Of a stretch of 64,000 nt of DNA, positions 1,989 to 58,500 are shown piece after piece. This DNA is from Candidatus Micrarchaeota archaeon (GTDB taxonomy: Archaea > Micrarchaeota > Micrarchaeia > Anstonellales > Bilamarchaeaceae): NCBI GenBank assembly GCA_023129075.1, contig JAGMCT010000002.1, positions 67,077 through 131,076 on the forward strand. Reading direction: 5' to 3'. A model generated the notes under the pieces. It was not told the DNA's origin. It saw nothing but the letters and a program-made list of their open reading frames with translations, and did no database searches. Position numbers and translations under genes: made by a program. Positions within the stretch are counted from its first letter, which is position 1, and each line of letters begins with the position of its first letter.

Positions 1989-3527
1989 ATGAATAATGTT
2001 TATGTCTGCGATACAAGCGTAATTATAGATGGAAGAATCCTTGACCTGATAAAAAAGGAAAAGCTTACAGGAAAGATATACATTACAAATGCAACAATCG
2101 CAGAATTGGAGCATCAGGCAAATGAGCACAAGGAAATCGGGTTTGCGGGGTTCAAAACCATAAAGCACCTGAGGGAGCTTTCTGCTGAATGTGATATAGA
2201 GATTCTGGTTGAAGGAGAACGGCCTAAAAAGCACCATATAGAATATGCAGGGAAAGGAGGAATGGACGCCCTTATAAGGGATTTTGCAAAGCAAATCGGA
2301 GGAACTCTTATTACAGGCGACAAGGTTCAGCACGAGGCAGCCGAAGCCGAAGGAATCCAAACAACATACCTTAGAGCAGTGGAAGAGATAAAGGAGCTTC
2401 TTTTTGAAAACTATTTTACTCCGGAAACAATGTCTATCCATCTAAAGGAGAACTGCAAACCGCTTGGAAAAAGAGGAATGCCAGGTAGGTTTGAACTGAC
2501 GGAGCTTGGAAAAAAACTCACAATAACAGAATTAAGAAAGATGGGAGAGGAGATAGTTGAGCATACTGAAAGAAATAAGGAATATTCATTTGAAATAGAA
2601 AAGGAGGGTGCAAGTGTAATACAAATGGGCCTTTACCGCATTGTGATCTCCAAAAGGCCGTTTTCAGATGGTTTTGAAATTACTGTTGTAAAACCAATAA
2701 CAAAATTAGGCCTGGATGATTATGAAATAAGCTCAAAACTCATGCAAAGACTAGAAGAGAAAGCAGAGGGAATCGTTGTGTGCGGTCCCCCAGGCTCTGG
2801 AAAATCAACTTTTGCAACTGCCCTTGCAGAATATTACCATTCAAAGAAAAAAATCGTAAAAACAATGGAGAATCCAAGAGACATGAGAGTGATTGATGAG
2901 ATAACCCAATACACAGCTCTTGAAGGAAGTTTTGAAAACACAAAGGACGTGCTTCTTTTGGTAAGGCCGGATTATACATTTTATGATGAGATGCGCCAGA
3001 CAAGGGATTTCAGTGTTTTTGTGGACATGAGGCTTTCAGGGGTTGGTTTGGTTGGTGTTGTGCACGGAAGCAGGGCCATAGATGCAATCCAGAGATTTAT
3101 AGGCAAGGTTGATTTGGGAGTAATCCCCCAGGTTATTGACACAGTAATTCTGATTGACGGCGGAAGGATAGCAAAGGTTTACGAGCTTGAGCACCTTGTA
3201 AAGGTCCCAAGCGGAATGACAGAAAAGGACCTTGCAAGGCCTGTTGTTGAAGTAAGGGAGTTTGAGACAGGGAAAGTGGAATTTGAGATGTATAAATTCG
3301 GGGAGGAAACAATTGTTCTTCCCCTAAAGGAAAAGACACATACAAGAAAAACAGGAATAGAAGGAGAGCTTTCAAGACTTTTAAGAGGCGAATTTCATAT
3401 TGAAAAAAGAAAAGGAAAATATGTTCTTTCTGTAAGCAGCAAAGATGCAAATTATTTATTCAGAAACAGAAAAAGGCTGAGAAGGATTGAAAACAGGTAC
3501 GGACCTATAGAGATAGAGGAATTTTGA
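1989..3527 (+). CDS. PIN-domain ATPase (PilT/PhoH-like, COG1855-type) with a C-terminal KH-like region
   Basis: N-terminal PIN (VCDTSVIIDGRI...), Walker A VVCGPPGSGKSTFA, and the archaeal PIN+ATPase+KH architecture. Confidence 0.7.
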   Translation: MNNVYVCDTSVIIDGRILDLIKKEKLTGKIYITNATIAELEHQANEHKEIGFAGFKTIKHLRELSAECDIEILVEGERPKKHHIEYAGKGGMDALIRDFAKQIGGTLITGDKVQHEAAEAEGIQTTYLRAVEEIKELLFENYFTPETMSIHLKENCKPLGKRGMPGRFELTELGKKLTITELRKMGEEIVEHTERNKEYSFEIEKEGASVIQMGLYRIVISKRPFSDGFEITVVKPITKLGLDDYEISSKLMQRLEEKAEGIVVCGPPGSGKSTFATALAEYYHSKKKIVKTMENPRDMRVIDEITQYTALEGSFENTKDVLLLVRPDYTFYDEMRQTRDFSVFVDMRLSGVGLVGVVHGSRAIDAIQRFIGKVDLGVIPQVIDTVILIDGGRIAKVYELEHLVKVPSGMTEKDLARPVVEVREFETGKVEFEMYKFGEETIVLPLKEKTHTRKTGIEGELSRLLRGEFHIEKRKGKYVLSVSSKDANYLFRNRKRLRRIENRYGPIEIEEF

Positions 3528-4120
3528 TGAAGAAGAAGATTGTCTCGCTGGAAAAGGATTATAATGGGGCGGTCACCAGGTTGGAAAAGGTTTTGAAGGA
3601 AGGAGGAGTTGCCGTTTACCCAACCGATACCCTTTATGGCATTGGAGGAAATGCACTTGATTCAAAGGTTGTGAAAAGGGTATTAGAGATAAAGAAAAGA
3701 CCTGTTGATGTTGCACTTTCAGTAATTCTTGGAAATCTTGCAATGGTTGGAGAATACTGCATTCTTGATGATTATGATAGGATGAAGCTTGTGCATTATT
3801 TTCCGGGTCCATACACACTTATTTTTGAGGCAAGGAAGGACATTCCGGTTGTAAGGAACAGGAGAATAGGGATAAGGGTTTCTGAACACGTGTTGCTAAG
3901 GAAAATGTCCTTTAAATTAAAGATGCCAATAGTTTCCACAAGTGCTAATTTTCATGGAGGCAAACCCCCTGTTTCTATTCAGGATATTCCTAAAGAGATT
4001 CTTTCCGATGTTGACCTTGTTGTTGACGGGGGGACTACGATGTATGGAGAGTGTTCTACTGTAATAGATATGATTAAGAGAAAAATTGTGAGGCAGGGTG
4101 CAGGAAAACCAATATTCTAA
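3524..4120 (+). CDS. tsaC: L-threonylcarbamoyladenylate synthase (YrdC/Sua5 family, single-domain TsaC type)
   Basis: YrdC signature VYPTDTLYGIG and ~200 aa length. The 4-nt start/stop overlap with the upstream gene indicates an operon. Confidence 0.8.
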   Translation: MMKKKIVSLEKDYNGAVTRLEKVLKEGGVAVYPTDTLYGIGGNALDSKVVKRVLEIKKRPVDVALSVILGNLAMVGEYCILDDYDRMKLVHYFPGPYTLIFEARKDIPVVRNRRIGIRVSEHVLLRKMSFKLKMPIVSTSANFHGGKPPVSIQDIPKEILSDVDLVVDGGTTMYGECSTVIDMIKRKIVRQGAGKPIF

Positions 4121-6392: not shown

Positions 6393-6464
6393 TGAGCCCG
6401 GGAGGAATCGAACCCCCTATCTATACCATGTCAAGGTAGTGTCTTACCGGTCGACTACGGGCTC
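6393..6464 (-). tRNA. tRNA-Val (anticodon GAC)
   Basis: Reverse complement GAGCCCGTAGTCGACCGGTAAGACACTACCTTGACATGGTATAGATAGGGGGTTCGATTCCTCCCGGGCTCA. The acceptor stem is 7 bp, the T-arm is GGGGG-TTCGATT-CCTCC, and the anticodon loop is UUGACAU. Confidence 0.75.
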
Positions 6465-7914: not shown

Positions 7915-7939
7915 GTTTTCTCCTTCTTTGAAAATGGAT

Positions 7940-8040
7940 GGGCCTGTGGAGATTTGAACTCCAGACCTTCGGCTGTCTTAGACCTATATTAGAGGAGGCC
8001 ATATAAGACCGGCGCTCTAACCAGCCTGAGCTACAGGCCC
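7940..8040 (-). tRNA. Intron-containing tRNA of Ile/Met type whose deduced spliced anticodon is UAU (tRNA-Ile(UAU)). The 27-nt intron lies at the canonical 37/38 position
   Basis: Reverse complement GGGCCTGTAGCTCAGGCTGGTTAGAGCGCCGGTCTTATA[TGGCCTCCTCTAATATAGGTCTAAGAC]AGCCGAAGGTCTGGAGTTCAAATCTCCACAGGCCCA. Acceptor and T arms are perfect. The anticodon stem is CCGGU/GCCGA with one C.A mismatch. The D-arm is near-identical to the CAU tRNA at 42251. Confidence 0.6.
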
Positions 8041-8175
8041 ATTATGGAATTTTATAAGCATGTGATGATTTAAAAAGCATTCGTCTTTTCCAACAGTCCA
8101 AGTTTTAGAAGAAGAAATCTGCACATTCTCCTTTTTTCCGATAGTTTTTTTAATTCCACGCAGTTATATTCTATT

Positions 8176-29517: not shown

Positions 29518-29886
29518 GTGGGTTTTTTCGATAAAATTTTGGGGAAGGAACAGGAAGGAGATGCGCCGGACCTGGAAGAATATTTAGATGAGAGAGAAGG
29601 CGACATAATAAATCCTCCAGCAGATTTTTATGTAAAGAGAGTAGACCTTAGAAATGAGGGGGATGCTGCGCTTGCATTAAAGGAGCTCGCCGAAAAGAAT
29701 ATTATCATTCTTAACGTCAAACCGATAGTAAACCAGCCAAAGAGACTTAAGACGTTGATAGGTAAGCTGAAGGCAAATGCAGATAAGATAAATGGGGATA
29801 TTGCTCTTCTTACAACAGAACTTATTATTCTTACTCCGTCAAAAGTATTGATTGTCAAGAGCAAGAAACAGAAAAAGAAGTTATAG
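29518..29886 (+). CDS. sepF: SepF-like cell-division protein (FtsZ anchor)
   Basis: N-terminal MGFFDKILG (an amphipathic membrane-binding helix, typical of SepF). C-terminal domain NIIILNVKP...RLKTLIGKLKANADKINGDIALLTTELIILTP matches the SepF core. Confidence 0.6.
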   Translation: MGFFDKILGKEQEGDAPDLEEYLDEREGDIINPPADFYVKRVDLRNEGDAALALKELAEKNIIILNVKPIVNQPKRLKTLIGKLKANADKINGDIALLTTELIILTPSKVLIVKSKKQKKKL

Positions 29887-29887
29887 G

Positions 29888-30799
29888 ATGTTTGAATTAA
29901 CCTTTTTCGGCACCAGCGCCGCCGTGCCCTCCCTAAAAAGGGGCATGCCTGCTTTTTCCCTTCGTTTTAATGAACTTTTTTTATTTGACTGCGGAGAAGG
30001 AACACAGCGCCAGATGATGCGTTATGGGGTTGGTTTTGGAAGAATAAAGGCGGTTTTCATCTCCCACCTTCATCTTGACCATTTTCTTGGTTTTTTCGGG
30101 CTTGCCGAAACCCTTCATTTAAATGAAAGGGAGGAGCCGTTAACTGTTTTCGCTCCTAAGGGATTCGGGGAAATGATAAGGGCGATAAGTCCTGCATCCG
30201 ACTGGAAAGAGAATTATCTTGATTCAAATGAAATAAATGAAGGTGTTCTTTATGAAGGCCGTGATTTTTCTATTTCTGCTTTCAGGGTAAAACATTCCAA
30301 GGAGAGTTATGGTTTTATTTTTCAGGAAAAGGATAAGGTTAAATTCAATGAAAAAAAGGCCAAATCTCTTGGGATTAAGGGTGTTCTATTCAAAAAAATA
30401 GAAAAAGAAGGAAAGGTAACAGTCGATGGAAAGACCATTTCTCTCGGAGAGATTAGCTGGATAAGGAAGGGGAGAAAGATAGTTTATTCTGGGGATACAA
30501 GGTCCTGTCCTGCTGTTTACAGGGCTGCAGAAGGCGCAGACATTCTTATACACGAGTCTACATATGCAGAAGACAGGAAAGATGAGGCAGGGAGCAGAGG
30601 CCATTCTACAGCTGTAGAGGCTGCAGAAACAGCAAAAAAAGCAAGAGTTAAGCATCTTATTCTCACTCATATAAGCGGAAGATACAGCACTCCCTCAGTC
30701 CTTGAAAAAGAAGCAAAAAAAGTATTCAAGAACACAACAATAGCAAAGGACGGCTTGAGGGTTCTGCTCTCGCCTGATGGTGTTATAAAGATAGAATAA
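29888..30799 (+). CDS. rnz: Ribonuclease Z (tRNA 3'-processing endonuclease). The ATG at 29888 is preferred over the track's 29852
   Basis: HLHLDHFLG, GDT and HEST motifs. About 300 aa. Confidence 0.8.
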   Translation: MFELTFFGTSAAVPSLKRGMPAFSLRFNELFLFDCGEGTQRQMMRYGVGFGRIKAVFISHLHLDHFLGFFGLAETLHLNEREEPLTVFAPKGFGEMIRAISPASDWKENYLDSNEINEGVLYEGRDFSISAFRVKHSKESYGFIFQEKDKVKFNEKKAKSLGIKGVLFKKIEKEGKVTVDGKTISLGEISWIRKGRKIVYSGDTRSCPAVYRAAEGADILIHESTYAEDRKDEAGSRGHSTAVEAAETAKKARVKHLILTHISGRYSTPSVLEKEAKKVFKNTTIAKDGLRVLLSPDGVIKIE

Positions 30800-36212: not shown

Positions 36213-36725
36213 ATGTTAATCGTTTTAAGACTGGGACACAGGCTTCCAAGAGATGAAAGAATAACCACACATGTCTGTCTTGTTGCAAGGGCTTTTGGTG
36301 CTGATGAGATTATTTATTCTGGACAGAAAGACAAAGGTCTTGAGAAATCAGTAAAAAAAATTGTTTCCGATTGGGGGGGAAATTTTAAGATTGGATACAC
36401 AGAAGACCCCGTTGGATTAATAAAAGAATTCAAGGAAAAAGATTTTTACATACTCCATCTTACGATGTATGGTTTTGGAATGGAAGAGATGAAAAAAGAG
36501 AAAGGCAGGAACACCCTCATAATCATAGGCGGAGGAAAGGTTCCTTCAGAGGTTTACGGACTTGCTGATTTTAATATTTCAATAACAAACCAGCCGCATT
36601 CCGAAGTTGCTGCTCTTGCAATTACGCTTGACCGTTTATTTAAAGGAAAAGAATTGAAATTAGAATTCAAGGGAAAGAAAAGAATAGTTCCCTCTGCGAG
36701 AGGGAAAAAGCTCACTGAATTTTGA
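36213..36725 (+). CDS. trm56: tRNA (cytidine56-2'-O)-methyltransferase aTrm56 (SPOUT)
   Basis: N-terminal LRLGHRLPRDERITTHVCLVARAFGADEIIY is the aTrm56 signature. About 170 aa. Confidence 0.8.
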   Translation: MLIVLRLGHRLPRDERITTHVCLVARAFGADEIIYSGQKDKGLEKSVKKIVSDWGGNFKIGYTEDPVGLIKEFKEKDFYILHLTMYGFGMEEMKKEKGRNTLIIIGGGKVPSEVYGLADFNISITNQPHSEVAALAITLDRLFKGKELKLEFKGKKRIVPSARGKKLTEF

Positions 36726-41393: not shown

Positions 41394-42155
41394 ATGGAAC
41401 TGGTCTTTTCAAGCATGAATATTGCAAGCATGAATATTGCTGAACATCTTTTTCAAAGGTTTGAGAAAAAGGAAGAGAACATCTGGGTTTACGGCAGTCA
41501 TAGGCTCATAGATTTAAAGGTAGACAGCATTTTGGACATCCCTGATTCGTTCAAAGGCCCTGTTCTTGTTCTTTCAACCCACAAAAGCGAAAAAAATTAT
41601 CCTGCATTTACCACCCACACTCCCGGAAACTGGTCTTCAGCTGATTTTGGTGGGGAGCCCAGAACCCTTAATATTGCCAACGGTTCGTTAATGGTTTCTC
41701 TTTTGAAGAATCTGCATAAAAACAATTCCCTAAACTGGAGTGTTAATCTTGAGGTGGACCATCACGGCCCGACTGTAAGTTACCCAATTACCTATGTTGA
41801 GATAGGCAGTTCGGAAAAGGAGTGGAGGAATAAAGATGCAGGAAGGATAGTTGCTGATTCGGTTTTAGCTTCTTTAGATCATGAGAGGGCAGAAGGTTCA
41901 TATCTTTGCGCCGGCGGGGGGCATTATGCTCCTTTGTTTACAAGGATGGTTCTTGAGAATGGCTTGGTGCCAGGCCATATGCTTCCAAAATATAAGGCCG
42001 GCGAGCTTGAGGAGGATACATTTATTCAGGCGGTTGAAAAGGTTGCTGAAAAAACAAAAGGAATTGTAATGGACAAGGATGGTCTCAACCTGATACAGAA
42101 GAATAAAATAAGGGATTTGGCATCTTCCTATGGGCTTGAGGTGCAGGCGGTTTAA
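41394..42155 (+). CDS. dtdA: D-aminoacyl-tRNA deacylase, archaeal type (DtdA/DTD2)
   Basis: Conserved blocks ASMNI, TTHTPGNW, HHGPT, VEIGSSEKEW, GGGHYAP and GHMLPKY. Confidence 0.8.
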   Translation: MELVFSSMNIASMNIAEHLFQRFEKKEENIWVYGSHRLIDLKVDSILDIPDSFKGPVLVLSTHKSEKNYPAFTTHTPGNWSSADFGGEPRTLNIANGSLMVSLLKNLHKNNSLNWSVNLEVDHHGPTVSYPITYVEIGSSEKEWRNKDAGRIVADSVLASLDHERAEGSYLCAGGGHYAPLFTRMVLENGLVPGHMLPKYKAGELEEDTFIQAVEKVAEKTKGIVMDKDGLNLIQKNKIRDLASSYGLEVQAV

Positions 42156-42250: not shown

Positions 42251-42378
42251 GCCAAGGTAGCTCAGTCTGGTTAGAGCGCCAGACTCATAAGGGATTATGA
42301 GTTCTGAGGCAAATGCCTATGATTGAATAGGCGCTCTGAGTAATCTGGAGGTCGGGGGTTCGAAGCCCCCTCTTGGCA
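42251..42378 (+). tRNA. Intron-containing tRNA with anticodon CAU (elongator tRNA-Met, or tRNA-Ile2 if the UAU tRNA call is wrong). The intron is ~55 nt in the anticodon loop
   Basis: GCCAAGGTAGCTCAGTCTGGTTAGAGCGCCAGACTCATA[...intron...]ATCTGGAGGTCGGGGGTTCGAAGCCCCCTCTTGGCA. Anticodon stem CCAGA/UCUGG. T-arm GGGGG-TTCGAAG-CCCCC. No archaeal-initiator features (no A1:U72, no triple GC in the anticodon stem). Confidence 0.75.
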
Positions 42379-44359: not shown

Positions 44360-45673
44360 TTAATTCCGATAATCAAATCCAAATAACCCAACCAGCAAAA
44401 GAAATGCAAGAGGAATACTGCACACATCATTAAAATTGTTCAAATCAACACTACCTTCTCCTATCTTTTCAATAGCAATCTCACTTTTTGATTTTCCTTT
44501 TTTTTCTATAATTATACTTCCATCTATTTCATTGTAACCAGTTTTAATCATAAAAGGAATCGTATGTATAAAATTATCCTCAAGCGCACTCTCATTTATT
44601 TCATAATAAACTGTTTTTAGTTCTCCAGGATTCATGAGAATAAAACTGTAATCATTCCCGTGCACATTTTCATCTATTACAAGTTTCATACATACCGGCA
44701 GATATCTATTCTTTGTATTTTTCATATAAATTTCAAGTTTCTGTTCTGTTGATTCATACACAAAGTCTATATCTATTGGCCCGTCTCTTTCATAGCTGTT
44801 TAATTCTGTTATTTTAACATCACTTTCCATTTCGAACCTGCCTCCCCTTGCACTCATCTGGTCCCCCATCTTTTTCTGGTCTTCTGCATTTGCCATTGCA
44901 ATATGCTCCCCGCTTAGGATACCCATCTCAAAAAATGTTGGGTCAACCGAAATCCATTTTCCATCAATCTTTATTTCTGCCCATGAATGAGACTGCCATC
45001 CTTCCTCCCCTTTTACATATCCTGATACTACATTACCTTCAAATCCTATGCTCTTTGCAAGCGCCAGGAACAGGTGTGAATATTCAACACACACACCCTT
45101 CTTATCCTGAAAGATTTTTTCCGCAGATTCAAATGTTCCCCAATACCCAAGGTCATACTCAAGATTATTGTGCACCCACTCAATAAGTTTTCCTGCAGTA
45201 TCCACCTGCCCTTCTGCTTCCCTTGTTATCTCAATTGCTTTCTGCTGCATTTCCTCAGTATATAAAGTCAGACCGCTTCCATTTACCGGTTTTCCACCCA
45301 ATTCAGGATTCTGCTCAAATCCATCTTCATATTCAATCTCAACCAGACCCCATACCCAAACCTGTTTTTCATCTTCCACCTCTGGAATCTCAAAGATTAC
45401 TCTTATTTCTGTATTATTCCTTTCAAACCTGCATTCATCAGAACATTTCATTTCAATTACTTTTTGGTACGAGGTATTAAGCAAAAAAATAGCATCTATT
45501 TCTATATCACTGATTTTTTCATCAGTCTTTATATTTATTGTTTTATTTATTTCTGCTTTCATATATCCTGTGTTTGCCACTATTATTGTTATAACCAGAA
45601 AAAGCATGAGGACTCTTTTCATGACTTTCTTTTTTTCTTTTCTCCTTTTAATTCTTTCTTTTTCTTTCTCCAC
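44360..45673 (-). CDS. Secreted/membrane-anchored transglutaminase-like cysteine-protease-fold enzyme. An alternative start at M 45622 would give a 4-nt overlap with the giant-gene stop
   Basis: Catalytic-core pattern GVCVEYSHLFLALAKSIG...SHSWAEIKIDGKWISVDPT (Cys-His-Asp). N-terminal signal anchor. Confidence 0.65.
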   Translation of the reverse strand: MEKEKERIKRRKEKKKVMKRVLMLFLVITIIVANTGYMKAEINKTINIKTDEKISDIEIDAIFLLNTSYQKVIEMKCSDECRFERNNTEIRVIFEIPEVEDEKQVWVWGLVEIEYEDGFEQNPELGGKPVNGSGLTLYTEEMQQKAIEITREAEGQVDTAGKLIEWVHNNLEYDLGYWGTFESAEKIFQDKKGVCVEYSHLFLALAKSIGFEGNVVSGYVKGEEGWQSHSWAEIKIDGKWISVDPTFFEMGILSGEHIAMANAEDQKKMGDQMSARGGRFEMESDVKITELNSYERDGPIDIDFVYESTEQKLEIYMKNTKNRYLPVCMKLVIDENVHGNDYSFILMNPGELKTVYYEINESALEDNFIHTIPFMIKTGYNEIDGSIIIEKKGKSKSEIAIEKIGEGSVDLNNFNDVCSIPLAFLLLVGLFGFDYRN

Positions 45674-48600
45674 AACAACAGCACCATAAAAAATATTATT
45701 TCAACATCAAGCATTGAGCAGGGATTGAATATATTGCCTGCCAGCCAGTTTCCATACAAGCTCCATCCAAATAGGAACGGAAGCGAGAATAATATCGGAA
45801 TAAATAGAATACCAATTCCAAGCATGCGCCCTTTCTTTTTCTTGTATTTCCTGCCCAGCAGATGTAAATTGAGAATAAATAGAATAACCATAGCAGTCCA
45901 CAGAATCCATGCACTGCTTTTTGGTATGTTATACAGCCCAAGACACAAAGGCCCTGAGCACATTCTCTCAAACTCACCTATAGATAACCCCTCATCCATT
46001 ATTGCATATCCGTCTTTATGTGCCTGCACAAGGTATTCCCCAGGTTCGCTGAAAGTAAGATATATCTCTCCCTTTTCATTTGTCTGGTATTCAACCTTCC
46101 CAAGACACATAGGTCCGGTACAAATCTTTGCGGTTTCCAGTTTTCCTGCTTCATCTGTTACTATGTATCCTCCATACTCGTCAAGGGTTATATAAGCCCC
46201 TTCTTTCTCAAATGTGTACCCCACCCTGTTTATCACCACAACAGCATTTGGAATTGGATTTCCTTTACTGTCTACAATAACAATCCAGGTCCTTTCATTA
46301 AGATAAATTTCATCCTCTGTTTGCACAAAACCTTTTCTTATTATCTCAAAAATCTTTTTCAGATCAAGATAGTTCTCCTTTTCTACGATTATTTCTCCTT
46401 TATATGAAATTATTACCCTTGCAATTCCCCCCTCACCAGCATAAGTATCAGTATCTTCATTATAAACATGTGCAAAAGGAACAGGCTCCCCCCTATTATT
46501 TATAATCTCCATTATTACTGTTTTTCCTTCAATAAGCTCCCCTTCAATTATCTTTAAATCCATCTCCTTTGGAACGCATGAATTATTTATGCAGAATTCT
46601 GTTTCCTTACATTCATAACCAGGTATTCCTTCACAGCACTCGTATTCTCTGCAGTCGTGGTTAAGTATGATTCCGCAAGCACAATCTATCTCAATACACA
46701 TACCTTCATTACAGTATTCATTCCATTCACAATCTCCATTCTCCTCGCATTCTATACACACTTCATCACAGAGATTGCTTTTGCACATTGCATTCCTTTC
46801 GCAGTCCTCTTCCAGTTCTCTTTTCTCTTCGCATATTATACCATTACAAAATTCGTCCTCTGCACAATCACTGTCATTGTAGCACTGAGGTATTACCTCA
46901 AAATAAAATTCATAATAATCATCGGCCCTTCCATTATCTGCAAGAACCTTAATTAGATATTCCCCCAACTCAGTTGGATAAACACCAAGCGCAATCTCTC
47001 CACTCTCCTTCTTTTCTATTTCCTGTATGAGCCCATCGCTTCCTGTTATTGACGGCGGGGTTACAAGCTCAACAAATATATCTTTTTCATCATAATTCCC
47101 AGTATTTTCTATAACCACAGCAACCAAGGTATTCTTGTATATTATTCCTTCCTCCGGTTCCGCAGAAATTATCTCTATCTTATGCTTCTTTTTATGGTCT
47201 TCTTCCCCCCCTGCTTCCTCAAGCGTTACATACCATGTTTGGTTAACCTCTTCATAAAGCGTTTCCAGCACCACCACAATTTCATATTCCTGAAGCGCAA
47301 GTCCATCCACATTCCATGCATATGTGCTCGTATCATTGGTTCCTGATGTTTCATTGTACTCAGCACCATCTACATACCACCTAATTACTACTTCGCTTGA
47401 ATTTTCATAGGTGATTATGAAATCCTGCACATCTGAATTCTCTATTGTTATATTTATTGGCGTGTCTCTCTCATAATCTCTTGTCCCCATATTCTCATCA
47501 GGATAAACAGTCAATATTCTTACACTCAGCGGAATATCACAGCTGTCCTTATATCCATCATCATCCATATCTGCAAATAAGCAGGTCCACTTCTCTCCGT
47601 TCGTTCCGGTTCCCTGGGCCGTAAGATTTGCACACAGGAAGAACACTTTTGATGCTGAGCTTACCTCATCCCCTTCAGCATCCGTCACGTTAATATAAAG
47701 CTCATACATTTCATCCTGCGCAGGTGCATTTATGGTTCCAGAGCATTCTACTCTGTCTGTCCCCACAACCACTGCAGGCAGATTCCCTGCAAGCTGGTCT
47801 ACCCCCCCGCTTTTCTTATAATACACCTGGCAGTTCGCTATCACTGTTGAGTCATCCGTCCTAAACTGTGCACTCACATCAATTGTATCGCTTATATTAT
47901 ACCAGACATCACTCAGGCTGAATGAACCGCTTACATATGCAGGCTTCAAATCCACAACAAACGAAGTTGTATTCATAAGCCCATAATTCCCTGCAGGGTC
48001 TCTTGCCCTTACACTCACATAATAGGTTCCGTCATCCACCATACTCCCTATATTGAATTTACAATTAGAGTCATAGGTTTCTCCAATAGAATATCCCCCC
48101 GGCCCTGTTGCATTATAATAACACCCATAAATCTCCCCGTCATGGAAGTTCGTATTTGCAGTATCACTGTCATTTGCAAGAACCCCCATCCATACTGCTC
48201 CATTATACACAATTTCGTCCTTAACACCCGGTTCTGTAACTATCCTCGTTATATTCGGCGCATCATCATCCAATATTAAATAATACGGGAAATTCTCTGA
48301 TGTTGCTCCCCCAGGATTGATGCTGTGCGAATACTCAAATTTCTTATAACTCCCAACATCAGCATAGCTGTAAGCAGAGGTTGTTGGAATCCTTATCGTC
48401 ACATCAAACCCATTATAGGTTGTTCCCAGGTGGTCATCATCCCATAATTTAATTACAGCCTGCCCTGCATTATCCTCATAAGAAAATGTTTCAAATATTC
48501 CTGCATCCGGCCCTTCTTTTGTCATCCCGGCCAGGTTCAATCCCTGCCCGTGCGAAAGCCCAAACCCATTTTTATTTCCAATAAACATCTTCACCTGGTC

Positions 48601-51600
48601 AAAACTCTCTGTGCTTGTAAGCCTTATCAAAAAGTCATTTCCTGTCCGCACCCTTCTCGGATAAGTCATGGTTACCTGGTTCCCTGGGCCTCCATATGTC
48701 ACAGTAATATTCTGCTCATCATATAATGTCCCATGCAGTGTTGAATCCACCCTGCATACAACATCATTTACACAATCACCATCAACACAATCCACAACTC
48801 CATCCCCATCATTATCAACATCATCATTGCATGTTGCTTCTGCAGGATTTTCGCATGCTCCTATTCCATTACAGTTTGCGTCTGCACAATCCGCATTCCC
48901 ATCATTATCATTATCCGCCCCATCAGAACAGAAATATGCATTGTTCTCATTTCCTCCAGCCACACAAATATGTGCATCGTAATCCACCAGCCATCCTACA
49001 CAATTTGTATCTCCACAATCAGTTCCCCCGCCATCAAACCTATCATAATCATTATCAAAACTATCCGCACATGAATCCCAGCTCACATTCTCTTCATCCG
49101 GGCACGGTCCGCAGTAGTCAAACTGCTGCCAGCAGTCCAAGTCATCACAGTCCGCTTTCACAGGAGGATAGGTTCCTTTATAAACATCTGTCGGCAGTGG
49201 GTCATCGTCCACCCCATTCTCACAATACGTCCAGTTCCTAAGCAGATTGTTAAAGAAAGGAGTCGCCCCAGTCGGGTCATATTCCATGTCAAGACACATC
49301 TCAAACGGATTGTTCGGATTCTGAACCCCTGTACAATTCATATCCCCGCAGTCAACCCCTCCAGATGCATTCACAATCCACGGACCACCTCCCCAAAAGT
49401 TTGCAGGATTTGTCCATTTATATGCATCCATATCATTATCCACATCATCAAAACACCATGAATCCTGAACATTTTCAACTGCAGGAACCGCCCCATCAAA
49501 CTGGCAGTCATAATCATCATAATCTCCATCATTTACGTATACAATCCCATAATACGCCAGATAAGCAGAAGGATTGTTTCCCCATCCAGGATTCGGCATC
49601 CCGCCTGCATTCCCATCATAATCATTATCAAATCCATCATTACAGGTAAGCTCTCTGCTCAATTCACAGGTATTTCCGCCTCCCATTACCGTAGTGTTGC
49701 AATCCTCATCCGGATACCTGTCGCTTCCATACCCGTAATAACCTCCCCATTCACAATCCATTCCTGCCCCATAACTATTGTTTATTGCATACCCAAATAT
49801 TCCTGCTTCCAGCCATTTATCCCAGTCATTATCTACACCATCATCACACTGCACCCCAACTTCAGTAAATATAGTAAAGTTCTGCTGGCAGAAAAACCTG
49901 CAGTCATACTCTGCATCATTATATCCACCCCCTCCCTGCAATTGACAATCCAATAAATTATACATATCATTATCAAAATTGTCATCACACGTAAGTTCTC
50001 TTCCATACTCACACCTATGATAAGGAGGAGTAGGCTCTGTCACCAAGTTGCAGTCCAAATCCCTGCAGTCCACCAAACTCAATCCTGGATTCACATGCCC
50101 CCAATTCGAATCCTCCATAGCCCAGTCATTATTATACTCATCAAAACAACTCTCATTCCCCAGCAGTTCACTTGCATAACCGCACAGCCCATAGGTAAAT
50201 GCACCAATATAATCATTCCATGCAGAAGGCCCCCAGCTTGCATTACAATCCAAATCATAACAATCATAAGAAGACTCGTAAAAACAATTCTGCTCATTCC
50301 CTGCACAGTTCAGATAATCAAAGTCTGCATTCTCAGTATCGTTGCATGAGCCCCAGTTCACCCCCTCAACCCAGATATCATCCTCATGTTCATTTGTTGA
50401 GTTCCATTTTCCCCCAGGGCTTCCCCCATAGCTCTCATTATCAAAATAAATAGGCACACTAACTGTTTCAGAATATACTGTAATCCCCTGCACATATGTC
50501 ACAGTAATATTTATCTCATACCCCTGGCTCATATCTATTGAACCCGGGTCCGCAAAACTCAAGTTGAATGTTGTATCTATCTTTGCAATCGTCTGGTCAT
50601 TGTCAAATGATTTTAGTATAACCTCATTCTGCCTTGTGTTCGCAGGCCCAAGAGAATCTGTTAATATAGGATTACTATTCTTATCAATAAAATAAAGCAG
50701 TTTCCCTTCATTTGCTGTCGCTCCCGGCGCATACTTATTAACCTGCTCAATATCCGGGAACCCCTCAACATTTACTGTTGTAAGATAACTATTTCCTGCA
50801 TTTATCTGCCATGCCCTAATTCTCATCTTGAATGTTCCGTCCGGCATTGAATGCATAGTATACCATATATTAGTGCTGAATGTTACTGCAGTGCTCTGCT
50901 CCTTTCCAATATCCCCAGCAGGTATATTTACAGCCAGCGTTCCATGCGAACCCGAAGGAGAATAATACAAACTTGAATTAGCAAATGCCTGTTTCACCAA
51001 ACAAGAATATGTAATCCCCCTGCAGTCCGAATCAAAGCAGTCCACAAAGGTATCATCCTCAGCAAAATCCGCAAACCCAGGCGCCCCAATTGCAGAATCT
51101 ACCCCATCATTGCACCATTCCTCCACAGAAATCCCATTATATTTTGTAACAGAATAGGTAACATCCCCAGGCCCATCCGCCTTTACAGTATTCCTAAAAT
51201 ACTGCGCCTCAATACTCTTTCCGTTGAATGCATTTGCTATATCCGCAGAGCTCCAGTTCAAAGGATGCACATGTATTCTCCAGTTTGTCTTATAGCTCTC
51301 TTTTACTGTTCCCCCTCCATCTATTACCTCGCATTTATCTATCTCCCACGGCACATAAATAGAGGTATTCCCTCCCATGCTTGTATTTATGGAATCCGTT
51401 ATCTGCAGGGAATAATTAAGCGAAACATTCTCACTATTTATCCCCCCCGCCCCAATGGTTCTGTTCAGGAAAAATCTTGTGCAGCTGCTGTTGTAAGGAT
51501 GGTCCCCGCAGTCCGACTGATTTATCCAGCATCCAACTTTATCCCCGGCATTCGCAGTCATATTTTCCAATATAATAGTAAAATTATACTTCAACCCTTC

Positions 51601-52335
51601 TCCAGTATGCGGGTCCCCTGCATCATATGCATAATAAACTCCCTCAGGAAATGTTGTATTCTTTTCTATACATTCATACTGAACATCTGCAAAGAGCCAG
51701 TAATCCACTGTCTGCCCTGCAAGGCTTCCATTCACCGGAAGTATGAGCTGGTAATCGCTTGTTGTTCCGTTCCAATCCGGCTTATCATCCTCATATGTTG
51801 CAGAAAGCACAAACCTATTTTCTGCATCCTGTAGATATCCTGCCCTGAAAATACCTGGTTTGGTATATGCAGAGGGAACATTACTCACTTCCCCAAAGCT
51901 GAAATTAAATGTTGAGACAAAAGTAAATGTATTGCTCGCATTATCCGCATCTGTTCCCGCGTTCATAAAAGCATTAAGTGCAATGAGATTTCCTGCACTA
52001 AAAGGAGTTGCTGCACTGCTTTCATTTACTGCATAGATAGTAACATTAATTATATTATAACCTGTTATTACGCCCCCGACCGCAGGACAATCCGGCTCTT
52101 TTGCCGTCACATCCAAATAGGTTATGTTCTCTCCTTCAGCCAGCACATGATAGTAATCCGGCCCACCACCTATTGAGATATTCCCATAAAAACCAGCCCA
52201 TCTCTGCGTAGTATCATTTCCCTGAAGGTTTACTGCAGTTATATTTCCCCCCTCAGTCAAATCTACATTCGCCCCATAAAGTAGAGAACAGAGCAGCACA
52301 AACACCAATACAAATCGCATGCCTGCATATTGCAT
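45619..52335 (-). CDS. Giant (2238 aa) secreted cell-surface protein. It has an N-terminal shared domain, extensive Cys/Asp-rich TSP3-like putative Ca-binding repeats (CxDxxDNDxDG...DCxDxDC), a C-terminal Cys-rich EGF-like cluster, and 3-4 C-terminal TM helices plus a poly-K tail
   Basis: Single uninterrupted ORF. Signal peptide MRFVLVFVLLCSLLYGA. At least 9 CxDGxDNDxD repeats. C-terminal TMs (ILWTAMVILFILNLHLL, GIGILFIPILFSLPFLFGWSL, IIFFMVLLLW). Confidence 0.75.
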   Translation of the reverse strand: MQYAGMRFVLVFVLLCSLLYGANVDLTEGGNITAVNLQGNDTTQRWAGFYGNISIGGGPDYYHVLAEGENITYLDVTAKEPDCPAVGGVITGYNIINVTIYAVNESSAATPFSAGNLIALNAFMNAGTDADNASNTFTFVSTFNFSFGEVSNVPSAYTKPGIFRAGYLQDAENRFVLSATYEDDKPDWNGTTSDYQLILPVNGSLAGQTVDYWLFADVQYECIEKNTTFPEGVYYAYDAGDPHTGEGLKYNFTIILENMTANAGDKVGCWINQSDCGDHPYNSSCTRFFLNRTIGAGGINSENVSLNYSLQITDSINTSMGGNTSIYVPWEIDKCEVIDGGGTVKESYKTNWRIHVHPLNWSSADIANAFNGKSIEAQYFRNTVKADGPGDVTYSVTKYNGISVEEWCNDGVDSAIGAPGFADFAEDDTFVDCFDSDCRGITYSCLVKQAFANSSLYYSPSGSHGTLAVNIPAGDIGKEQSTAVTFSTNIWYTMHSMPDGTFKMRIRAWQINAGNSYLTTVNVEGFPDIEQVNKYAPGATANEGKLLYFIDKNSNPILTDSLGPANTRQNEVILKSFDNDQTIAKIDTTFNLSFADPGSIDMSQGYEINITVTYVQGITVYSETVSVPIYFDNESYGGSPGGKWNSTNEHEDDIWVEGVNWGSCNDTENADFDYLNCAGNEQNCFYESSYDCYDLDCNASWGPSAWNDYIGAFTYGLCGYASELLGNESCFDEYNNDWAMEDSNWGHVNPGLSLVDCRDLDCNLVTEPTPPYHRCEYGRELTCDDNFDNDMYNLLDCQLQGGGGYNDAEYDCRFFCQQNFTIFTEVGVQCDDGVDNDWDKWLEAGIFGYAINNSYGAGMDCEWGGYYGYGSDRYPDEDCNTTVMGGGNTCELSRELTCNDGFDNDYDGNAGGMPNPGWGNNPSAYLAYYGIVYVNDGDYDDYDCQFDGAVPAVENVQDSWCFDDVDNDMDAYKWTNPANFWGGGPWIVNASGGVDCGDMNCTGVQNPNNPFEMCLDMEYDPTGATPFFNNLLRNWTYCENGVDDDPLPTDVYKGTYPPVKADCDDLDCWQQFDYCGPCPDEENVSWDSCADSFDNDYDRFDGGGTDCGDTNCVGWLVDYDAHICVAGGNENNAYFCSDGADNDNDGNADCADANCNGIGACENPAEATCNDDVDNDGDGVVDCVDGDCVNDVVCRVDSTLHGTLYDEQNITVTYGGPGNQVTMTYPRRVRTGNDFLIRLTSTESFDQVKMFIGNKNGFGLSHGQGLNLAGMTKEGPDAGIFETFSYEDNAGQAVIKLWDDDHLGTTYNGFDVTIRIPTTSAYSYADVGSYKKFEYSHSINPGGATSENFPYYLILDDDAPNITRIVTEPGVKDEIVYNGAVWMGVLANDSDTANTNFHDGEIYGCYYNATGPGGYSIGETYDSNCKFNIGSMVDDGTYYVSVRARDPAGNYGLMNTTSFVVDLKPAYVSGSFSLSDVWYNISDTIDVSAQFRTDDSTVIANCQVYYKKSGGVDQLAGNLPAVVVGTDRVECSGTINAPAQDEMYELYINVTDAEGDEVSSASKVFFLCANLTAQGTGTNGEKWTCLFADMDDDGYKDSCDIPLSVRILTVYPDENMGTRDYERDTPINITIENSDVQDFIITYENSSEVVIRWYVDGAEYNETSGTNDTSTYAWNVDGLALQEYEIVVVLETLYEEVNQTWYVTLEEAGGEEDHKKKHKIEIISAEPEEGIIYKNTLVAVVIENTGNYDEKDIFVELVTPPSITGSDGLIQEIEKKESGEIALGVYPTELGEYLIKVLADNGRADDYYEFYFEVIPQCYNDSDCAEDEFCNGIICEEKRELEEDCERNAMCKSNLCDEVCIECEENGDCEWNEYCNEGMCIEIDCACGIILNHDCREYECCEGIPGYECKETEFCINNSCVPKEMDLKIIEGELIEGKTVIMEIINNRGEPVPFAHVYNEDTDTYAGEGGIARVIISYKGEIIVEKENYLDLKKIFEIIRKGFVQTEDEIYLNERTWIVIVDSKGNPIPNAVVVINRVGYTFEKEGAYITLDEYGGYIVTDEAGKLETAKICTGPMCLGKVEYQTNEKGEIYLTFSEPGEYLVQAHKDGYAIMDEGLSIGEFERMCSGPLCLGLYNIPKSSAWILWTAMVILFILNLHLLGRKYKKKKGRMLGIGILFIPILFSLPFLFGWSLYGNWLAGNIFNPCSMLDVEIIFFMVLLLWRKKKKELKGEKKKRKS

Positions 52336-52542
52336 AAATTCATTTAAACTAAGTCTCTTAAAAAAGGTTTCTAAAACACATTTTCATATTAAATAACAAA
52401 TAATTTAACAGCAAATAATTTATTTTGGAATTCATTTTAATAGAATATTAGTTCTATTTTATGTGTTTATACTGCTCTTTCTTATCTTTCCCAACAATAA
52501 ATAACCCTAACCTTTAAAACGCCCCTTGATATTACTTTAGTG

Positions 52543-55500
52543 ATGTTGGGTTCGAAAAGTGGCTTAGGATTAGCACTATTGCTATTCATTCTTGCTTTAC
52601 TCCAACCAATCTCCGACACCACTTTCACAAAAACAATAAACATTTCCTACTTCGAGAGTATGGAATCTGATTTCTCTAATCTGCAGGTTTTTTCGATTTC
52701 CGACGAAGGCGCAGAACCCCTTGTTTATACTATTCTGGAGTATTCCCCAGGAGAATGGGCGCTCCTGGAAATTTCAATCCCTTATGACAGCGAAAGATTA
52801 CTTTTCACCCATTTCTTACTGGATAATTACGAGCCGGTAACCATCAGCGGAAAAGAAGTAAAATACTATTTTGAGAAAATAAATGGAGCTGGATACATAA
52901 GATTAAAGGATTCTTTTATAGAAAACATCACGATCCACAATATCTCCGCTTCCTCAAACATAGAGATATTCAAAGACATTATTGTTTCCAATGATGAGCT
53001 TGAAAACCTAAGAGCATTTTCCTTTAACCCAAAGAATATAGAATCCGCAGAGATATCTATAATTGCAAAAGGTTATTTCCTTTTCAAATGCAAAGACTGG
53101 AATTACACCACCCAGTCCTGCCAAGGAGAATGGGAATACCAGTTCCCCATAACCCCTGGAAAACCCTACACAATCCACCTCAATTCTTTAGACCCCGGCT
53201 ATGCTGAATCAGGCCCGTTCATTGCTTTTGACGACCGCGGTCTAACCGTAACCTCCAATGTTTATTCTTCAGATAATGTTTATGCAAACAAAAAGGCCAG
53301 TATTAGTTATTGGGTAAACGGCACTTGGAACATGGACATTCTTGGAGACCTAAACAGCGCCAACTTCAAATGTGAATTAAAGGTAGATTTAGCAGCCTTA
53401 GGAACCCTTTACCATGAATGGTTCAACTCTTCCTCTTCTTCCTGGAAAACAATCTGCACAAAATCAACCACTATTCAAATTACAGATACCACTCATAGTT
53501 GTGATGTTTCTTCTGATTTGAATACATCTGAATCCTCCCATACTCTGAGATGCAGGATTGCTTTCCTTCTTTTAAAAGATATTTCAATAGATTATATTTC
53601 TCTTGATTCTGATTTCCAATGTGTAAACCTCTCCAATCCCTCAACCTATCAAAACAGAGTAGTAAACATGAGCGGAATCTACTACATAAACGATAACGTA
53701 ATCCTATGCACAGATAATTATTCAACCACTGATGATTTAATCCGAATAAATGCTTCTTCCATTACTTTAGATTGCGGAGGTTCAACATTAGATGGAGATG
53801 ATGCGGGGAGTGATTACGGGATAGATACACAGCAGAATAATTACTTAGAAATAAAAAATTGCATAATTACTGATTTCAGAAGCGGTATTTACACAGATGC
53901 TAATTACAGTAATTTCACCAACAACACTGTTTATTCTAATATTGAAGGTTTTTCTGTTGTATCCTCTTCAAACAACAGTTTCACAAACAATACTGCACAT
54001 AATAACCTTAAATGCGGTTTTTCCCTCTCATCATCCTTAAACAACACTCTCACAAACAATACGGCCAATTCCAATCAGGATGGTTTTCACCTTCAATCCT
54101 CCTCTATTTACAATACTCTCATAAACAACACAGCGCAGGAAAATCTTGGATGTGATTTAGTAATTGCAATTTCCACAGCAGGAGACTGCAACAATCTTAT
54201 TGAGAATAATACTGGTTCTGGCGGCAGGCCAATTTTGTACGCAAATGAATCAGTCACATGGAGCAATTTAGAAGCATCAGAGGTTATTCTATGCAATGCA
54301 GATTATTCAGTCATCACTAATGTAACTGTAAAGGGTTCTGATGCTTTAGATAACAATTATTTCTTACTCTACCATTCAGATAACCTTTCAATATCCGATT
54401 CAAGCTCCGTAAATAATCTTTATGGTTTTTACGCTAGTTATTGCTCGCATAACAATTTCACCAATAATACTGCCAATTCAAACAATAATTATGGCTTCTA
54501 CATTCGCTACGGTTCTAATAATGCTTTCACTAATAATACAGCCAATTACAATAATTATGGCTTCTATATTCGTTCTTCACCCAGCAACATTTTCACAAAT
54601 AATACTGCTGATTCAAATGATAACTATGGCATTTACCTTTATTCTACCTCCGACAATAAGCTGACTAATAACACTGCCAGCATGAACGGTCGGTGTGGTT
54701 TTACCCTTTACTCCTCTTCAAACTATAATACCCTGGCTAGCAACACTGTTAGCTCAAATGAAAGGTCTGGTTTCTATTTTTACTCTTCCTCAGGCAATAA
54801 TATATCCAACTCAATAATTATAAACAACTCACAGCGTGGAATGCACCTGTACGGAAATTCAGATAATAATACATTTGAAAATATAACACTACATGGTAAT
54901 GCCCAGTCTTCTTCTTATTATGAGATTTACTTTGACCGCAGCGGAGTAATTTACCCAGAATACAATACCTTTACAGATATAAAACTCTACAATTCCACAA
55001 GATACATTGGATTTGACGACCAAACCCATACAAACCAAAACAACTTCACCAACCTTTCCATATGCTACAATTCCACAATAGGCTGCATAAATTGGGACTT
55101 CCTTAATCTCACTTATGCAAACCTTGCAAATGCAACAACAATAATCCTTGACCCAGAATTCATTTCCCTAAACACCTCAAACACAGGAGCAGCCCAATTC
55201 AATTCCTCTGCAAACATAACTATTTATGCTGAGGACTGCGCACACCCAATTTACAAAGCTTCAAATTTTCCAGATTCAAGAGATTCAATTCTCTCTTCCG
55301 GCTCTAAAGTTAACCCCATATACAATACCTGTTCAAATAATATTGCAGTATTTTCCACAGTAAATGATTTCTCAGGATATACAAAAGGATATGTTGGCTG
55401 TGTAAACCTTTCCAATCCCTCAACCTACCAAAACAAAGTAGTAAACATGAGTGGAATCTATTACATAAATGATAATGTAACCCTATGCACAGATAATTAT

Positions 55501-58500
55501 TCAACAACTGATGATTTAATCCGAATAAACGCCTCTTCTATTACTTTAGACTGCAACGGTTCAACATTAGATGGAGATGATGCAGGGGATGATTATGGAA
55601 TAGATACACAAGGAAATGATTACCTGGAGATAAAAAATTGCATAATTACTGATTTTGAAAGTGCAATATCTGCAACAGGCACAACCTACAGCAATTTCAC
55701 CAATAACACAGCCATTTCAAATACTGATGGTTTTATTGCTTCTTCTTTTAATTTTAATATTCTCTTAAACAATACCGCTACTTCAAACACAAAACATGGT
55801 TTCCACATTTCTTCTTCTTCCAATAATATTTTCACCAACAACACAGCCCAGCATAATGGCTATGGTTTCGGCATCTATACCACATCCGAGTATAATACCT
55901 TCACTAACAACATAGCTTATAGCAATAATGCTGGCGGTTTTTATCTTCGCACTTCAACCTACAGCATTTTCACTAACAACACAGCCAGTTCAAATAGTAA
56001 TGGTTTTTATTTTTACTCATCTTCAAGCAATAATATATCCAACTCAATAATTATAAACAATTTAAATCGTGGAATATACCTGTACAGAAATTCAGATAAT
56101 AATACATTTGAAAATATAACACTACATGGCAATGCCCAATCTTCTTCTTATGAGATTTACTTTGACCGCAATCTTGCGGATTATCCTGAACACAACACCT
56201 TTACAGATATAAAACTCTACAATTCCACAAGATACATTGGATTTGACGACCAAACCCATACAAACCAAAATAATTTCACCAACCTTTCCATATGCTACAA
56301 TTCCACAATAGGCTGCATAAATTGGGACTTCCTCAACCTCACTTATGCAAACCTTGCAAATGCAACAACAATCATCCTTGACCCAGAATTCATTTCCCTA
56401 AACACCTCAAATGCCGGAGCAGTCCAGTTCAATTCCTCTGCAAACATAACCGTAGAGGTCGTTTCCTGCATAAAACCTGCCGAATTCATAATAAGAAGAT
56501 TAACAGAATTCCCGCAAAGCAAAAACATCATACTGACCAGCGGGCAGGATTATGATCCAACATCTATATCCTGCCCTTCTTCCACATCCATTAAGTTCAA
56601 TATTTCTTCCTTCTCAGGCTTTGCTCCATTGAAAGCAGGAATCACAGATTGCTATACCATAGCTCATCCCGGAGACTACTGGATAGTAGATGACATAGAC
56701 GCAAGCTCTGTAAATGAAGTTTCTGCACGCGCCTGCATAAATATATCTTCAAGTAATGTCAACCTCAACCTCAACGGCTTCTCAATAGCAAACGGTTCAA
56801 ACATAAGCGGCATCTTTGCAAACGGTTCAAGCTCATATCAGTATACTAATATAACCATCCGTGATGGAACAGTAACGAACTTCACCCACAACAGCACCAT
56901 CGGCCCGGCATATATCGGAGGAATCATATTTACTTATATAGAGAATTCAAGTCTCTCAAACCTATCAGTAAGCTATGCTTCAAAACAAACCCCTGCAAAG
57001 GTTTCCACATATGGAATATTCTTTGATGGGAGCTCTTATAACTCCATTCTCAACCTTACGGTGCACAACAACGAACAAAATGGAATTAGAATTGAATCCT
57101 ATTCAAACTACAATAATTTCTCAGATATAATATCCTTAAGTAACATAGGGACTGGAATCCGAATCTCCTCAAGCCTAAACAACAGAATAGACCAAAGCAC
57201 CATATACAGCAATTCAGGAAGAGGAATCCATCTAGACTCCTCAAATTACACCATGGTCTTAGATACCCTTACTTATGATAACAGCTATGGCATCTCCTTA
57301 ACCTCAACCTCAAACAACACCCTCACCAACATCACCAGCCACACTAATTCCAACGGCGGTTTTTACTCTTCTGCAAGCTCCGGAAACAACATAACAAATA
57401 TACTATCCTACAACAATACCCAAGAGGGTTTCTTCATCACAACCTCCCATTTCAATAAATTGGAAAACATAACAACCTACACTAATTCCAGAAGAGGTTT
57501 AGTGCTTTTTTTGAGTAATTACAACACTCTTGAAAATATCACTACATACAATAACCCCTGGTACGGCATTTTTATCTCTTCTGCCTCCAACAACAACCTC
57601 ATCAACATTACCTCCTATAACAATTCCCAACACAGCCTTTACATATACGCAAATTCAGACAATAATATATTCACAGATTTAACATTCTATGAGGATGGGA
57701 AATCTCCTTCCTATTATGAGGTTTACTTTGGCCGCAATGGAGTAATTTACCCGGAATACAATACCTTTACAGATATAAAACTCTACAATTCCACAAGATA
57801 CATTGGATTTGACGACCAAACCCATACAAACCAAAATAATTTCACCAACCTTTCCATATGCTACAATTCCACAATAGGCTGCATAAATTGGGACTTCCTC
57901 AACCTCACTTATGCAAACCTTGCAAATGCAACAACAATAATCCTTGACCCAGAATTCATTTCCCTAAACACCTCAAATGCCGGAGCAGTCCAGTTCAATT
58001 CCTCTGCAAACATAACTATTTATGCTGAGGACTGCGCACACCCAATTTACAAAGCCTCAAATTTCCCAGATTCAAGAGATTTAATTCTCTCTTCCGGCTC
58101 TAAAGTTAACCCCATATACAATACCTGTTCAAATAATATTGCAGTATTTTCCACAGTAAATGATTTCTCAGGATATACAAAAGGATATGCTGGCTGTGTA
58201 AACCTTTCCAATCCCTCAACCTATCAAAACAAAGTAGTAAACATGAGCGGAATCTATTACATAAATAATGACGTAATTCTATGCACAGATAATTATTCAA
58301 CAACTGATGATTTAATCCGAATAAACGCCTCTTTCATTACATTGGACTGCAATGATTCTATTCTTGATGGAGATAATGCAGGGGGTGATGAGGGTATAAA
58401 CACACAACAGAATAATTACTTAGAAATAAAAAATTGCATAATTACTGATTTTGAAAGAGGCATATATCTATTTAATTCTACATACAATAGAATAGACAAT

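Follow-up and report, generated by a model that had tools for sequence, protein, structure and literature searches.

The 64-kb stretch of DNA analysed here (the window), from a Candidatus Micrarchaeota archaeon, carries an intron-containing tRNA gene on the minus strand at 7939..8040, whose anticodon after removal of the intron is UAU. Very probably this is a functional tRNA-Ile(UAU) gene of this DPANN archaeon, which reads AUA in place of the route that uses tRNA-Ile2(CAU) and TiaS. The gene is a further instance of a feature that has already been described for Micrarchaeota and is common across DPANN.

Structure of the tRNA gene

At the Rfam gathering threshold, four tRNAs were found in the 64-kb window. 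The segment 7939..8040 was recognized as a tRNA by RF00005 with 53.7 bits (gathering score, 29; E = 9.6e-9 over the whole window). In the covariance-model alignment, model positions 1-71 were all matched from end to end in the canonical 75-nt form, and a 28-nt insert followed straight after CUUAUA, where 1 base is expected; this insert corresponds to a 27-nt intron plus A38. The gene and its candidate signals are as follows.

7939..8040, minus strand: whole pre-tRNA-Ile(UAU) gene, 102 nt, 75 nt when spliced (Rfam; cloverleaf with 16 of 17 stem pairs)
8002..8040, minus strand: 5′ exon, tRNA positions 1-37, ending in C32 U33 U34 A35 U36 A37 (covariance-model alignment and splice-site parse)
8003..8005, minus strand: anticodon U34 A35 U36 (TAT on the minus strand; 8005, 8004, and 8003, respectively) (sequence, Rfam alignment, and parse)
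7975..8001, minus strand: intron UGGCCUCCUCUAAUAUAGGUCUAAGAC, 27 nt, at the canonical position 37/38 (parsed by hand and by script)
7939..7974, minus strand: 3′ exon with A38, GCCGA (3′ strand of the anticodon stem), variable loop AGGUC, T arm, 3′ strand of the acceptor stem, and A73
8068..8076, minus strand: A/T-rich box TTTTTAAAT, candidate archaeal TATA box, its centre lying some 32 nt upstream of the first base of the mature tRNA
7931..7934, minus strand: TTTT run, candidate oligo-T terminator, 5 nt after the discriminator base

As read from the sequence, the acceptor stem GGGCCUG/CAGGCCC was paired at 7/7 positions. The D stem GCUC/GAGC (4/4) and the T stem UGGAG/CUCCA (5/5, loop UUCAAAU) were likewise fully paired. 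The mature anticodon loop, C-U-U-A-U-A-A, comprises 7 nt with U33 and A37, and the spliced loop thus gives the anticodon UAU. Both the Rfam alignment and the splice parse support what had been proposed from the sequence alone, an intron-containing tRNA with the spliced anticodon UAU and a 27-nt intron after position 37, and the perfect acceptor, D, and T arms claimed at the same time were also found. The anticodon stem had been given correctly as CCGGU/GCCGA; however, it is not perfect, since only 4/5 positions form pairs, and the C27.A43 mismatch and the U31.G39 wobble had gone unmentioned. The first pair is G1-C72 and the discriminator base is A73. CCA is not encoded in the gene, and UCCA follows A73.

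The TTTTTAAAT box and the TTTT run are candidates for the promoter and the terminator of the gene, respectively. Were transcription to begin some 26 nt downstream of the box, the transcript would carry a leader of roughly 6 nt.

The 102-nt tRNA sequence recurred without change in another NCBI assembly (L123) and in the Logan assembly of SRR13892594 (L124). Since the same sequence occurs in three assemblies, C27.A43 is not peculiar to one assembler. The proteins of the window (MCK4319097-131, locus tags KAW38_) are listed at NCBI, with identical sequences, under Candidatus Micrarchaeota archaeon, and they are encoded also on contig DAOVQD010000005.1 of GCA_030628865.1.

Bulge-helix-bulge motif at the splice junctions

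In the canonical archaeal motif, position 32 pairs with the intron base located 3 nt upstream of the 3′ splice site, and there are a 4-bp central helix and two 3-nt bulges. The junctions of the window gene, which the sequence-only reading had singled out for inspection, form a strict hBHBh′ motif at 37/38. C32 U33 U34 A35 is fully paired with intron nucleotides 22-25 (UAAG) in the central helix, and the splice sites lie in the bulges U36 A37|U on the 5′ side and A C|A38 on the 3′ side. The outer helix is formed by intron nucleotides 2-6 (GGCCU) and 17-21 (AGGUC).

Free folding of the whole pre-tRNA by RNAfold without constraints did not give a cloverleaf (-40.4 vs -34.1 kcal/mol), nor did that of the mature tRNA. 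Unmodified tRNA sequences often miss the cloverleaf in free folding, and we gave this result little weight. Because of it, energies were compared only for the isolated anticodon arm plus intron. For this segment, the bulge-helix-bulge fold had a free energy of -9.5 kcal/mol against a minimum of -9.6 kcal/mol and was the second-best suboptimal structure.

To assess the conservation of the motif, 19 further archaeal UAU tRNA genes were parsed. Their 3′ exons were placed by maximising cloverleaf pairing alone, and the bulge-helix-bulge helices were not used in choosing the splice sites. In these genes, the insert occurred right after A37, and C32-A35 formed the central helix with TAAG, TGAG, TAGG, TGGG, or GAGG. 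Pairs were counted in a fixed 32-column alignment of the bulge-helix-bulge region of 20 DPANN UAU tRNAs, including that of the window. In this alignment, 91.2% of the cells were paired (n = 20), and shifting the 3′ partners by 1-3 columns lowered this share to 30-48%. The central helix was paired at 97.5% and the anticodon stem at 99%, and 8 pairs differed on both sides among the 20 homologues. On four of five measures, none of 500 shuffles reached the observed value, and on the fifth, 1/500 did. U31.G39 was kept as a wobble in 18/20 homologues.

One tRNA(UAU) of 149 nt from Aenigmatarchaeota (L100, 4694-4842) had 13/17 stem pairs under a parse with a single 37/38 intron; two or more introns, or one inserted at some site other than 37/38, may account for this.

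A box C/D guide RNA within the intron, as in euryarchaeal tRNA-Trp, was considered and rejected. The intron is only 27 nt long, and the UGA...CUAAG-like ends of the longer homologues fit the bulge-helix-bulge helices.

Probable isoleucine identity and demand for AUA decoding

With UAU as its spliced anticodon, the tRNA is most likely a decoder of AUA, an isoleucine codon. The mature tRNA was 83-89% identical to the UAU tRNAs of other DPANN archaea (89% to that of Woesearchaeota L073, 87% to Micrarchaeota L106, 85% to L048, and 84% to Iainarchaeum L111). Its identity with the tRNAs of the same window was 68% for tRNA(CAU), 51% for tRNA-Val, and 45% for tRNA-Gly. The body of the tRNA thus resembles those of other archaeal UAU tRNAs and fits tRNA-Ile, a probable assignment based on the anticodon and, indirectly, on A73, G1-C72, and this similarity.

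Among 24 genes of the window (12,451 codons), AUA accounted for 509 of the 950 isoleucine codons (53.6%; 40.9 per 1000 codons). It was the commonest isoleucine codon in the window and twice as frequent as AUG. This usage indicates that the organism needs an efficient AUA decoder.

TiaS and the companion tRNA(CAU)

The standard archaeal pair of tRNA-Ile2(CAU) and TiaS, which forms agmatidine, resembles the window gene in that AUA is read as isoleucine. However, tRNA-Ile2(CAU) has C34 and needs TiaS, whereas the window gene encodes U34 and no TiaS was found in the 64 kb. The TiaS Pfam families PF08489, PF22641, and PF23783 were absent from the 40 window ORFs scanned, and tblastn with TiaS of A. 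fulgidus gave no match in the 64-kb window or in any of the fetched loci. This query had been checked against PDB entries 4rvz and 3amt (100% over 420 residues). TiaS is predicted to be missing also from the rest of the genome beyond the 64 kb.

The same Pfam scan of 40 ORFs assigned housekeeping functions in the window, including PCNA, the RFC large subunit, Cdc6/Orc1, TFE alpha, Rpo7, PheRS alpha, DTD2, ThyX, tRNase Z, Trm56, and Sua5. No tRNA-splicing endonuclease, pseudouridine synthase, or Elp3-family protein was found among the window ORFs scanned. The genes related to tRNA and the two largest ORFs are as follows.

3524..4120, plus strand: Sua5/YrdC (t6A37 synthesis)
29852..30799, plus strand: tRNase Z-like metallo-beta-lactamase
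36213..36725, plus strand: Trm56 (Cm56)
41394..42155, plus strand: D-aminoacyl-tRNA deacylase DTD2
42251..42378, plus strand: tRNA(CAU), probably elongator tRNA-Met (Rfam, 54.5 bits; ARAGORN -i, Met(cat) with a 53-nt intron); 5′ exon 42251..42289, 53-nt intron 42290..42342 (37/38), 3′ exon 42343..42378
45619..52335, minus strand: ORF of 2238 aa, no Pfam match on record
52501..64000, plus strand: ORF open for at least 3833 aa and running off the end of the window

Giant surface proteins are often seen in DPANN genomes, and the two very large ORFs (45619..52335 and 52501..64000) may encode such proteins.

The central bulge-helix-bulge helix of tRNA(CAU) at 42251 was CUCA/UGAG when parsed by hand. 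For this tRNA, an initiator role is excluded by G1-C72 and by an anticodon stem, CCAGA/UCUGG, that lacks three consecutive G-C pairs. When its acceptor stem, GCCAAGG, is set against that of the UAU tRNA, 5/7 positions differ. Archaeal elongator tRNA-Met often begins with GCC, and isoleucine isoacceptors share a GGGCC-type stem. Its predicted assignment as the elongator tRNA-Met agrees with the sequence-only reading. The near identity of the two D arms that had been pointed out was also found (1 of 18 bases differs); however, it is no specific sign of a relationship between isoleucine and methionine isoacceptors, since this D-arm type is widespread.

A tRNA-Ile(UAU) that is real but exists alongside tiaS and a tRNA-Ile2(CAU) elsewhere in the genome would make AUA decoding redundant instead of agmatidine-independent. 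The region covered is 64 kb of the genome, the very heavy use of AUA could favour two decoders, and the database-wide set of TiaS homologues does not bear on Micrarchaeota, since the best 120 of 6639 were all from Archaeoglobales. However, in all the archaea for which we found the matter addressed in the literature (N. equitans, K. cryptofilum, and ARMAN-2, -4, and -5), a UAU tRNA goes together with the loss of both TiaS and tRNA-Ile(CAU) (PMC3239211, PMC3575796, PMC6000648), and the sole tRNA(CAU) in the window has an acceptor stem that is Met-like and not Ile-like. We therefore regard such coexistence as unlikely.

Possible decay of the gene and an alternative isotype

The pair 27-43 was standard in 19/19 of the other homologues, and the sole unpaired cell was the C.A of the window tRNA (window positions 8014 and 7969). 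Its anticodon stem is accordingly slightly weakened. From this lone non-standard pair among 20 homologues, it could be argued that this copy is decaying or works only weakly and that another AUA decoder takes its place. Yet all other stems are intact, the bulge-helix-bulge motif is perfect, the same sequence recurs in the three assemblies, and the dominance of AUA among the isoleucine codons places a strong demand on its decoder. Single mismatches at 27-43 are, moreover, tolerated in many tRNAs. Decay of the gene is thus very improbable.

ARAGORN, which had been suggested as a check, missed the gene in default mode. In -i mode it did find an intron-containing tRNA; however, it assigned the span c[7935,8041] to tRNA-Arg(UCU) and gave the intron a length of 22 nt. 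Although AGA is common in the window (17.6 per 1000 codons), this arginine isotype, in which the 22-nt intron starts earlier within the anticodon loop, is hardly credible. The structure drawn for it has an acceptor stem of 8 bp, lengthened by bases from the flanks, together with a G.A mismatch in the anticodon stem and an extended, irregular variable region, in a tRNA of 85 nt. Its junctions (GUCUU|AUAUGG...AUAGG|UCUAA) lie outside any bulge-helix-bulge motif. By contrast, the canonical 75-nt form is matched over its full length by the Rfam covariance model, and the UAU reading with a 37/38 bulge-helix-bulge motif fits all the homologues parsed. The arginine reading is also not conserved among homologues: at 23 homologous DPANN loci, ARAGORN -i reported Ile(tat) at 15 and Ser, Glu, Ala, or Tyr at the remaining 8. 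We rejected tRNA-Arg(UCU) on account of its non-canonical cloverleaf, the lack of the motif at its junctions, and this lack of conservation.

The inconsistent isotypes across the 23 loci indicate that intron placement by ARAGORN -i is unreliable. Its misplacement of bulge-helix-bulge introns calls for caution in the automated annotation of DPANN tRNAs.

Distribution of tRNA-Ile(UAU) and earlier records

Genomes representing species were scanned with the pattern TAGCTCAG-N(4-9)-AGAGC-N6-CTTATA, and at least 120 stretches matched. The source genome of the window was not among the matches listed. About one fifth of the matches listed were archaeal, and all of these with a phylum label belonged to DPANN. 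The DPANN UAU loci listed comprised at least 11 from Woesearchaeota, at least 3 from Pacearchaeota, and at least one each from Nanoarchaeota, Aenigmatarchaeota, Iainarchaeum, Nanohaloarchaea, and Micrarchaeota; several were labelled only "archaeon". The rest of the matches listed were mostly from CPR/Patescibacteria and Planctomycetes, with a few from Streptomyces.

According to general reviews, prokaryotes have no UAU tRNAs (PMC8007984, PMC8879553). In contrast, tRNA-Ile(UAU) is on record in Nanoarchaeum equitans and Korarchaeum cryptofilum (PMC6000648, PMC3575796) and in some tilS-less bacteria (PMC3575796). In 2011, Fujishima et al. described for ARMAN-2, -4, and -5 a tRNA-Ile(UAU) that has its intron at 37/38 within a strict hBHBh′ motif, together with the lack of TiaS and tRNA-Ile(CAU) (PMC3239211). 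The view of the sequence-only reading that an encoded UAU isoacceptor is confined to a few lineages (Nanoarchaeota and Korarchaeota) is therefore out of date, given the ARMAN genes of 2011 (PMC3239211) and the many DPANN phyla found in our scan. Having been described in the phylum in 2011 and being common in related tiny archaea, the gene of the window is ordinary for its lineage.

The closest known system is that of ARMAN-2 (Candidatus Micrarchaeum acidiphilum), the founding member of Micrarchaeota, which shares with the window gene the phylum, the UAU anticodon, the 37/38 intron (25 vs 27 nt), and the strict hBHBh′ motif (PMC3239211). Its pre-tRNA-Ile(UAU) with the 25-nt intron serves as the standard substrate for in vitro work on the epsilon2 splicing endonuclease (PMC3239211, PMC12397907) and was reused as a splicing substrate in 2025 (PMC12397907). 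The two differ in that the window comes from another organism, represented by a MAG (GCA_030628865.1) and a second assembly, and that its tRNA has C27.A43; the in vitro cleavage is that of the ARMAN-2 tRNA. N. equitans and Candidatus Korarchaeum cryptofilum likewise have archaeal UAU isoacceptors in genomes without tiaS, and in Korarchaeum the UAU gene has an intron while its GAU paralogue has none (PMC6000648, PMC3575796); their phyla differ from that of the window. The bacterial tRNA-Ile(UAU) of tilS-less Mycoplasma mobile and Bifidobacterium gives the same answer to AUA without a modified C34 (PMC3575796). However, the bacterial UAU genes are without a bulge-helix-bulge intron, and M. mobile, whose U34 carries no modification, owes its specificity to IleRS and the ribosome (PMC3575796).

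Several other features of these loci were observed. Among the matches listed (loci L003-L122), UAU tRNA genes with this D arm were abundant in CPR/Patescibacteria (Saccharibacteria, Parcubacteria, and others), and they occurred also in Planctomycetes, Chloroflexota, and some Streptomyces, including on plasmid NZ_CP108729.1. A tRNA-Glu(UUC) gene lay within a few kb of tRNA-Ile(UAU), at distances down to about 10 nt, at L022, L028, L033, L036, L043, L048, L056, L067, L080, L087, L107, L109, and L113, which suggests that this linkage is conserved in many loci of Woesearchaeota and Pacearchaeota. The tRNA nearest to the UAU gene of the window is instead tRNA-Val(GAC) at 6393..6464. At L071 (1183-1280), L064, and L014 (CPR, Actinomyces), the UAU tRNA was represented by a shortened 5′ half, with a different tRNA or a complete copy directly behind it; these halves may be partial duplications or assembly artefacts.

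Retention of the intron in the UAU isoacceptor

The 37/38 intron was present in 18/20 of the DPANN UAU tRNAs as compared with 0/18 of the remaining tRNAs at these loci (L022-L113; L028 5142-5263 and L109 5278-5407 are examples). These 18 other tRNAs were judged to be intronless because all were 71-75 nt long. The intron therefore appears to be specific to this isoacceptor, as it is in eukaryotes. Eukaryotic cytosolic tRNA-Ile(UAU) has the same anticodon and a 37/38 intron that pairs with it, and the intron is conserved in this isoacceptor (PMC11408192). In yeast, Psi34 and Psi36 are formed by Pus1 in an intron-dependent manner; in the window gene, the precondition for such a modification is present, in that U34 and A35 pair with the intron in the central helix.

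Speculatively, the 37/38 intron of archaeal tRNA-Ile(UAU) might be functionally required, such that its pairing with U34 and A35 directs or blocks modification of the wobble uridine. The modifications under such control could be pseudouridylation or the exclusion of an Elp3-type xm5U, so that UAU would read AUA without misreading AUG. We consider this rather doubtful. The presence of the intron also in ARMAN-2 and Korarchaeum (PMC3239211, PMC6000648) speaks for it in a correlative manner. Against it are the archaeal UAU genes in the sample that have no intron, L078, L106 (Micrarchaeota), and L119, as well as the phylogenetic clustering of the sampled genomes and the fact that the other intron-bearing tRNA in the window is tRNA(CAU). 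If the proposal were true, the intron-dependent Psi-A-Psi strategy of eukaryotes would have an archaeal counterpart or precursor in DPANN and Korarchaeota.

Proposed pathway of AUA decoding and its meaning

We propose the following pathway for the gene of the window as a functional tRNA-Ile(UAU). The transcript would fold so that C32-A35 pair with intron nucleotides 22-25 and the splice sites lie in the 3-nt bulges. The archaeal splicing endonuclease would then excise the intron between A37 and A38, the exons would be joined by an RNA ligase, and CCA would be added. A37 is presumably converted to t6A, and the window has a Sua5 gene at 3524..4120. After charging by IleRS, the tRNA would read AUA and replace the agmatidine route of tRNA-Ile2(CAU) and TiaS. 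Splicing and isoleucine charging of the window tRNA are thus predicted steps. For the way in which U34 may avoid AUG, there are three precedents: unmodified U34 with an adapted IleRS and ribosome, as in M. mobile (PMC3575796); cnm5U, as in haloarchaeal mutants (PMC3895270); or intron-dependent Psi34/Psi36, as in eukaryotes (PMC11408192).

The gene very likely adds one more genome of Micrarchaeota in which AUA is decoded by an encoded UAU and not by agmatidine, as is expected for the phylum. Perhaps more useful is the side result that UAU tRNAs are readily found across DPANN and CPR, contrary to what general reviews state. DPANN lineages could be used to address how an archaeal U34 avoids AUG.
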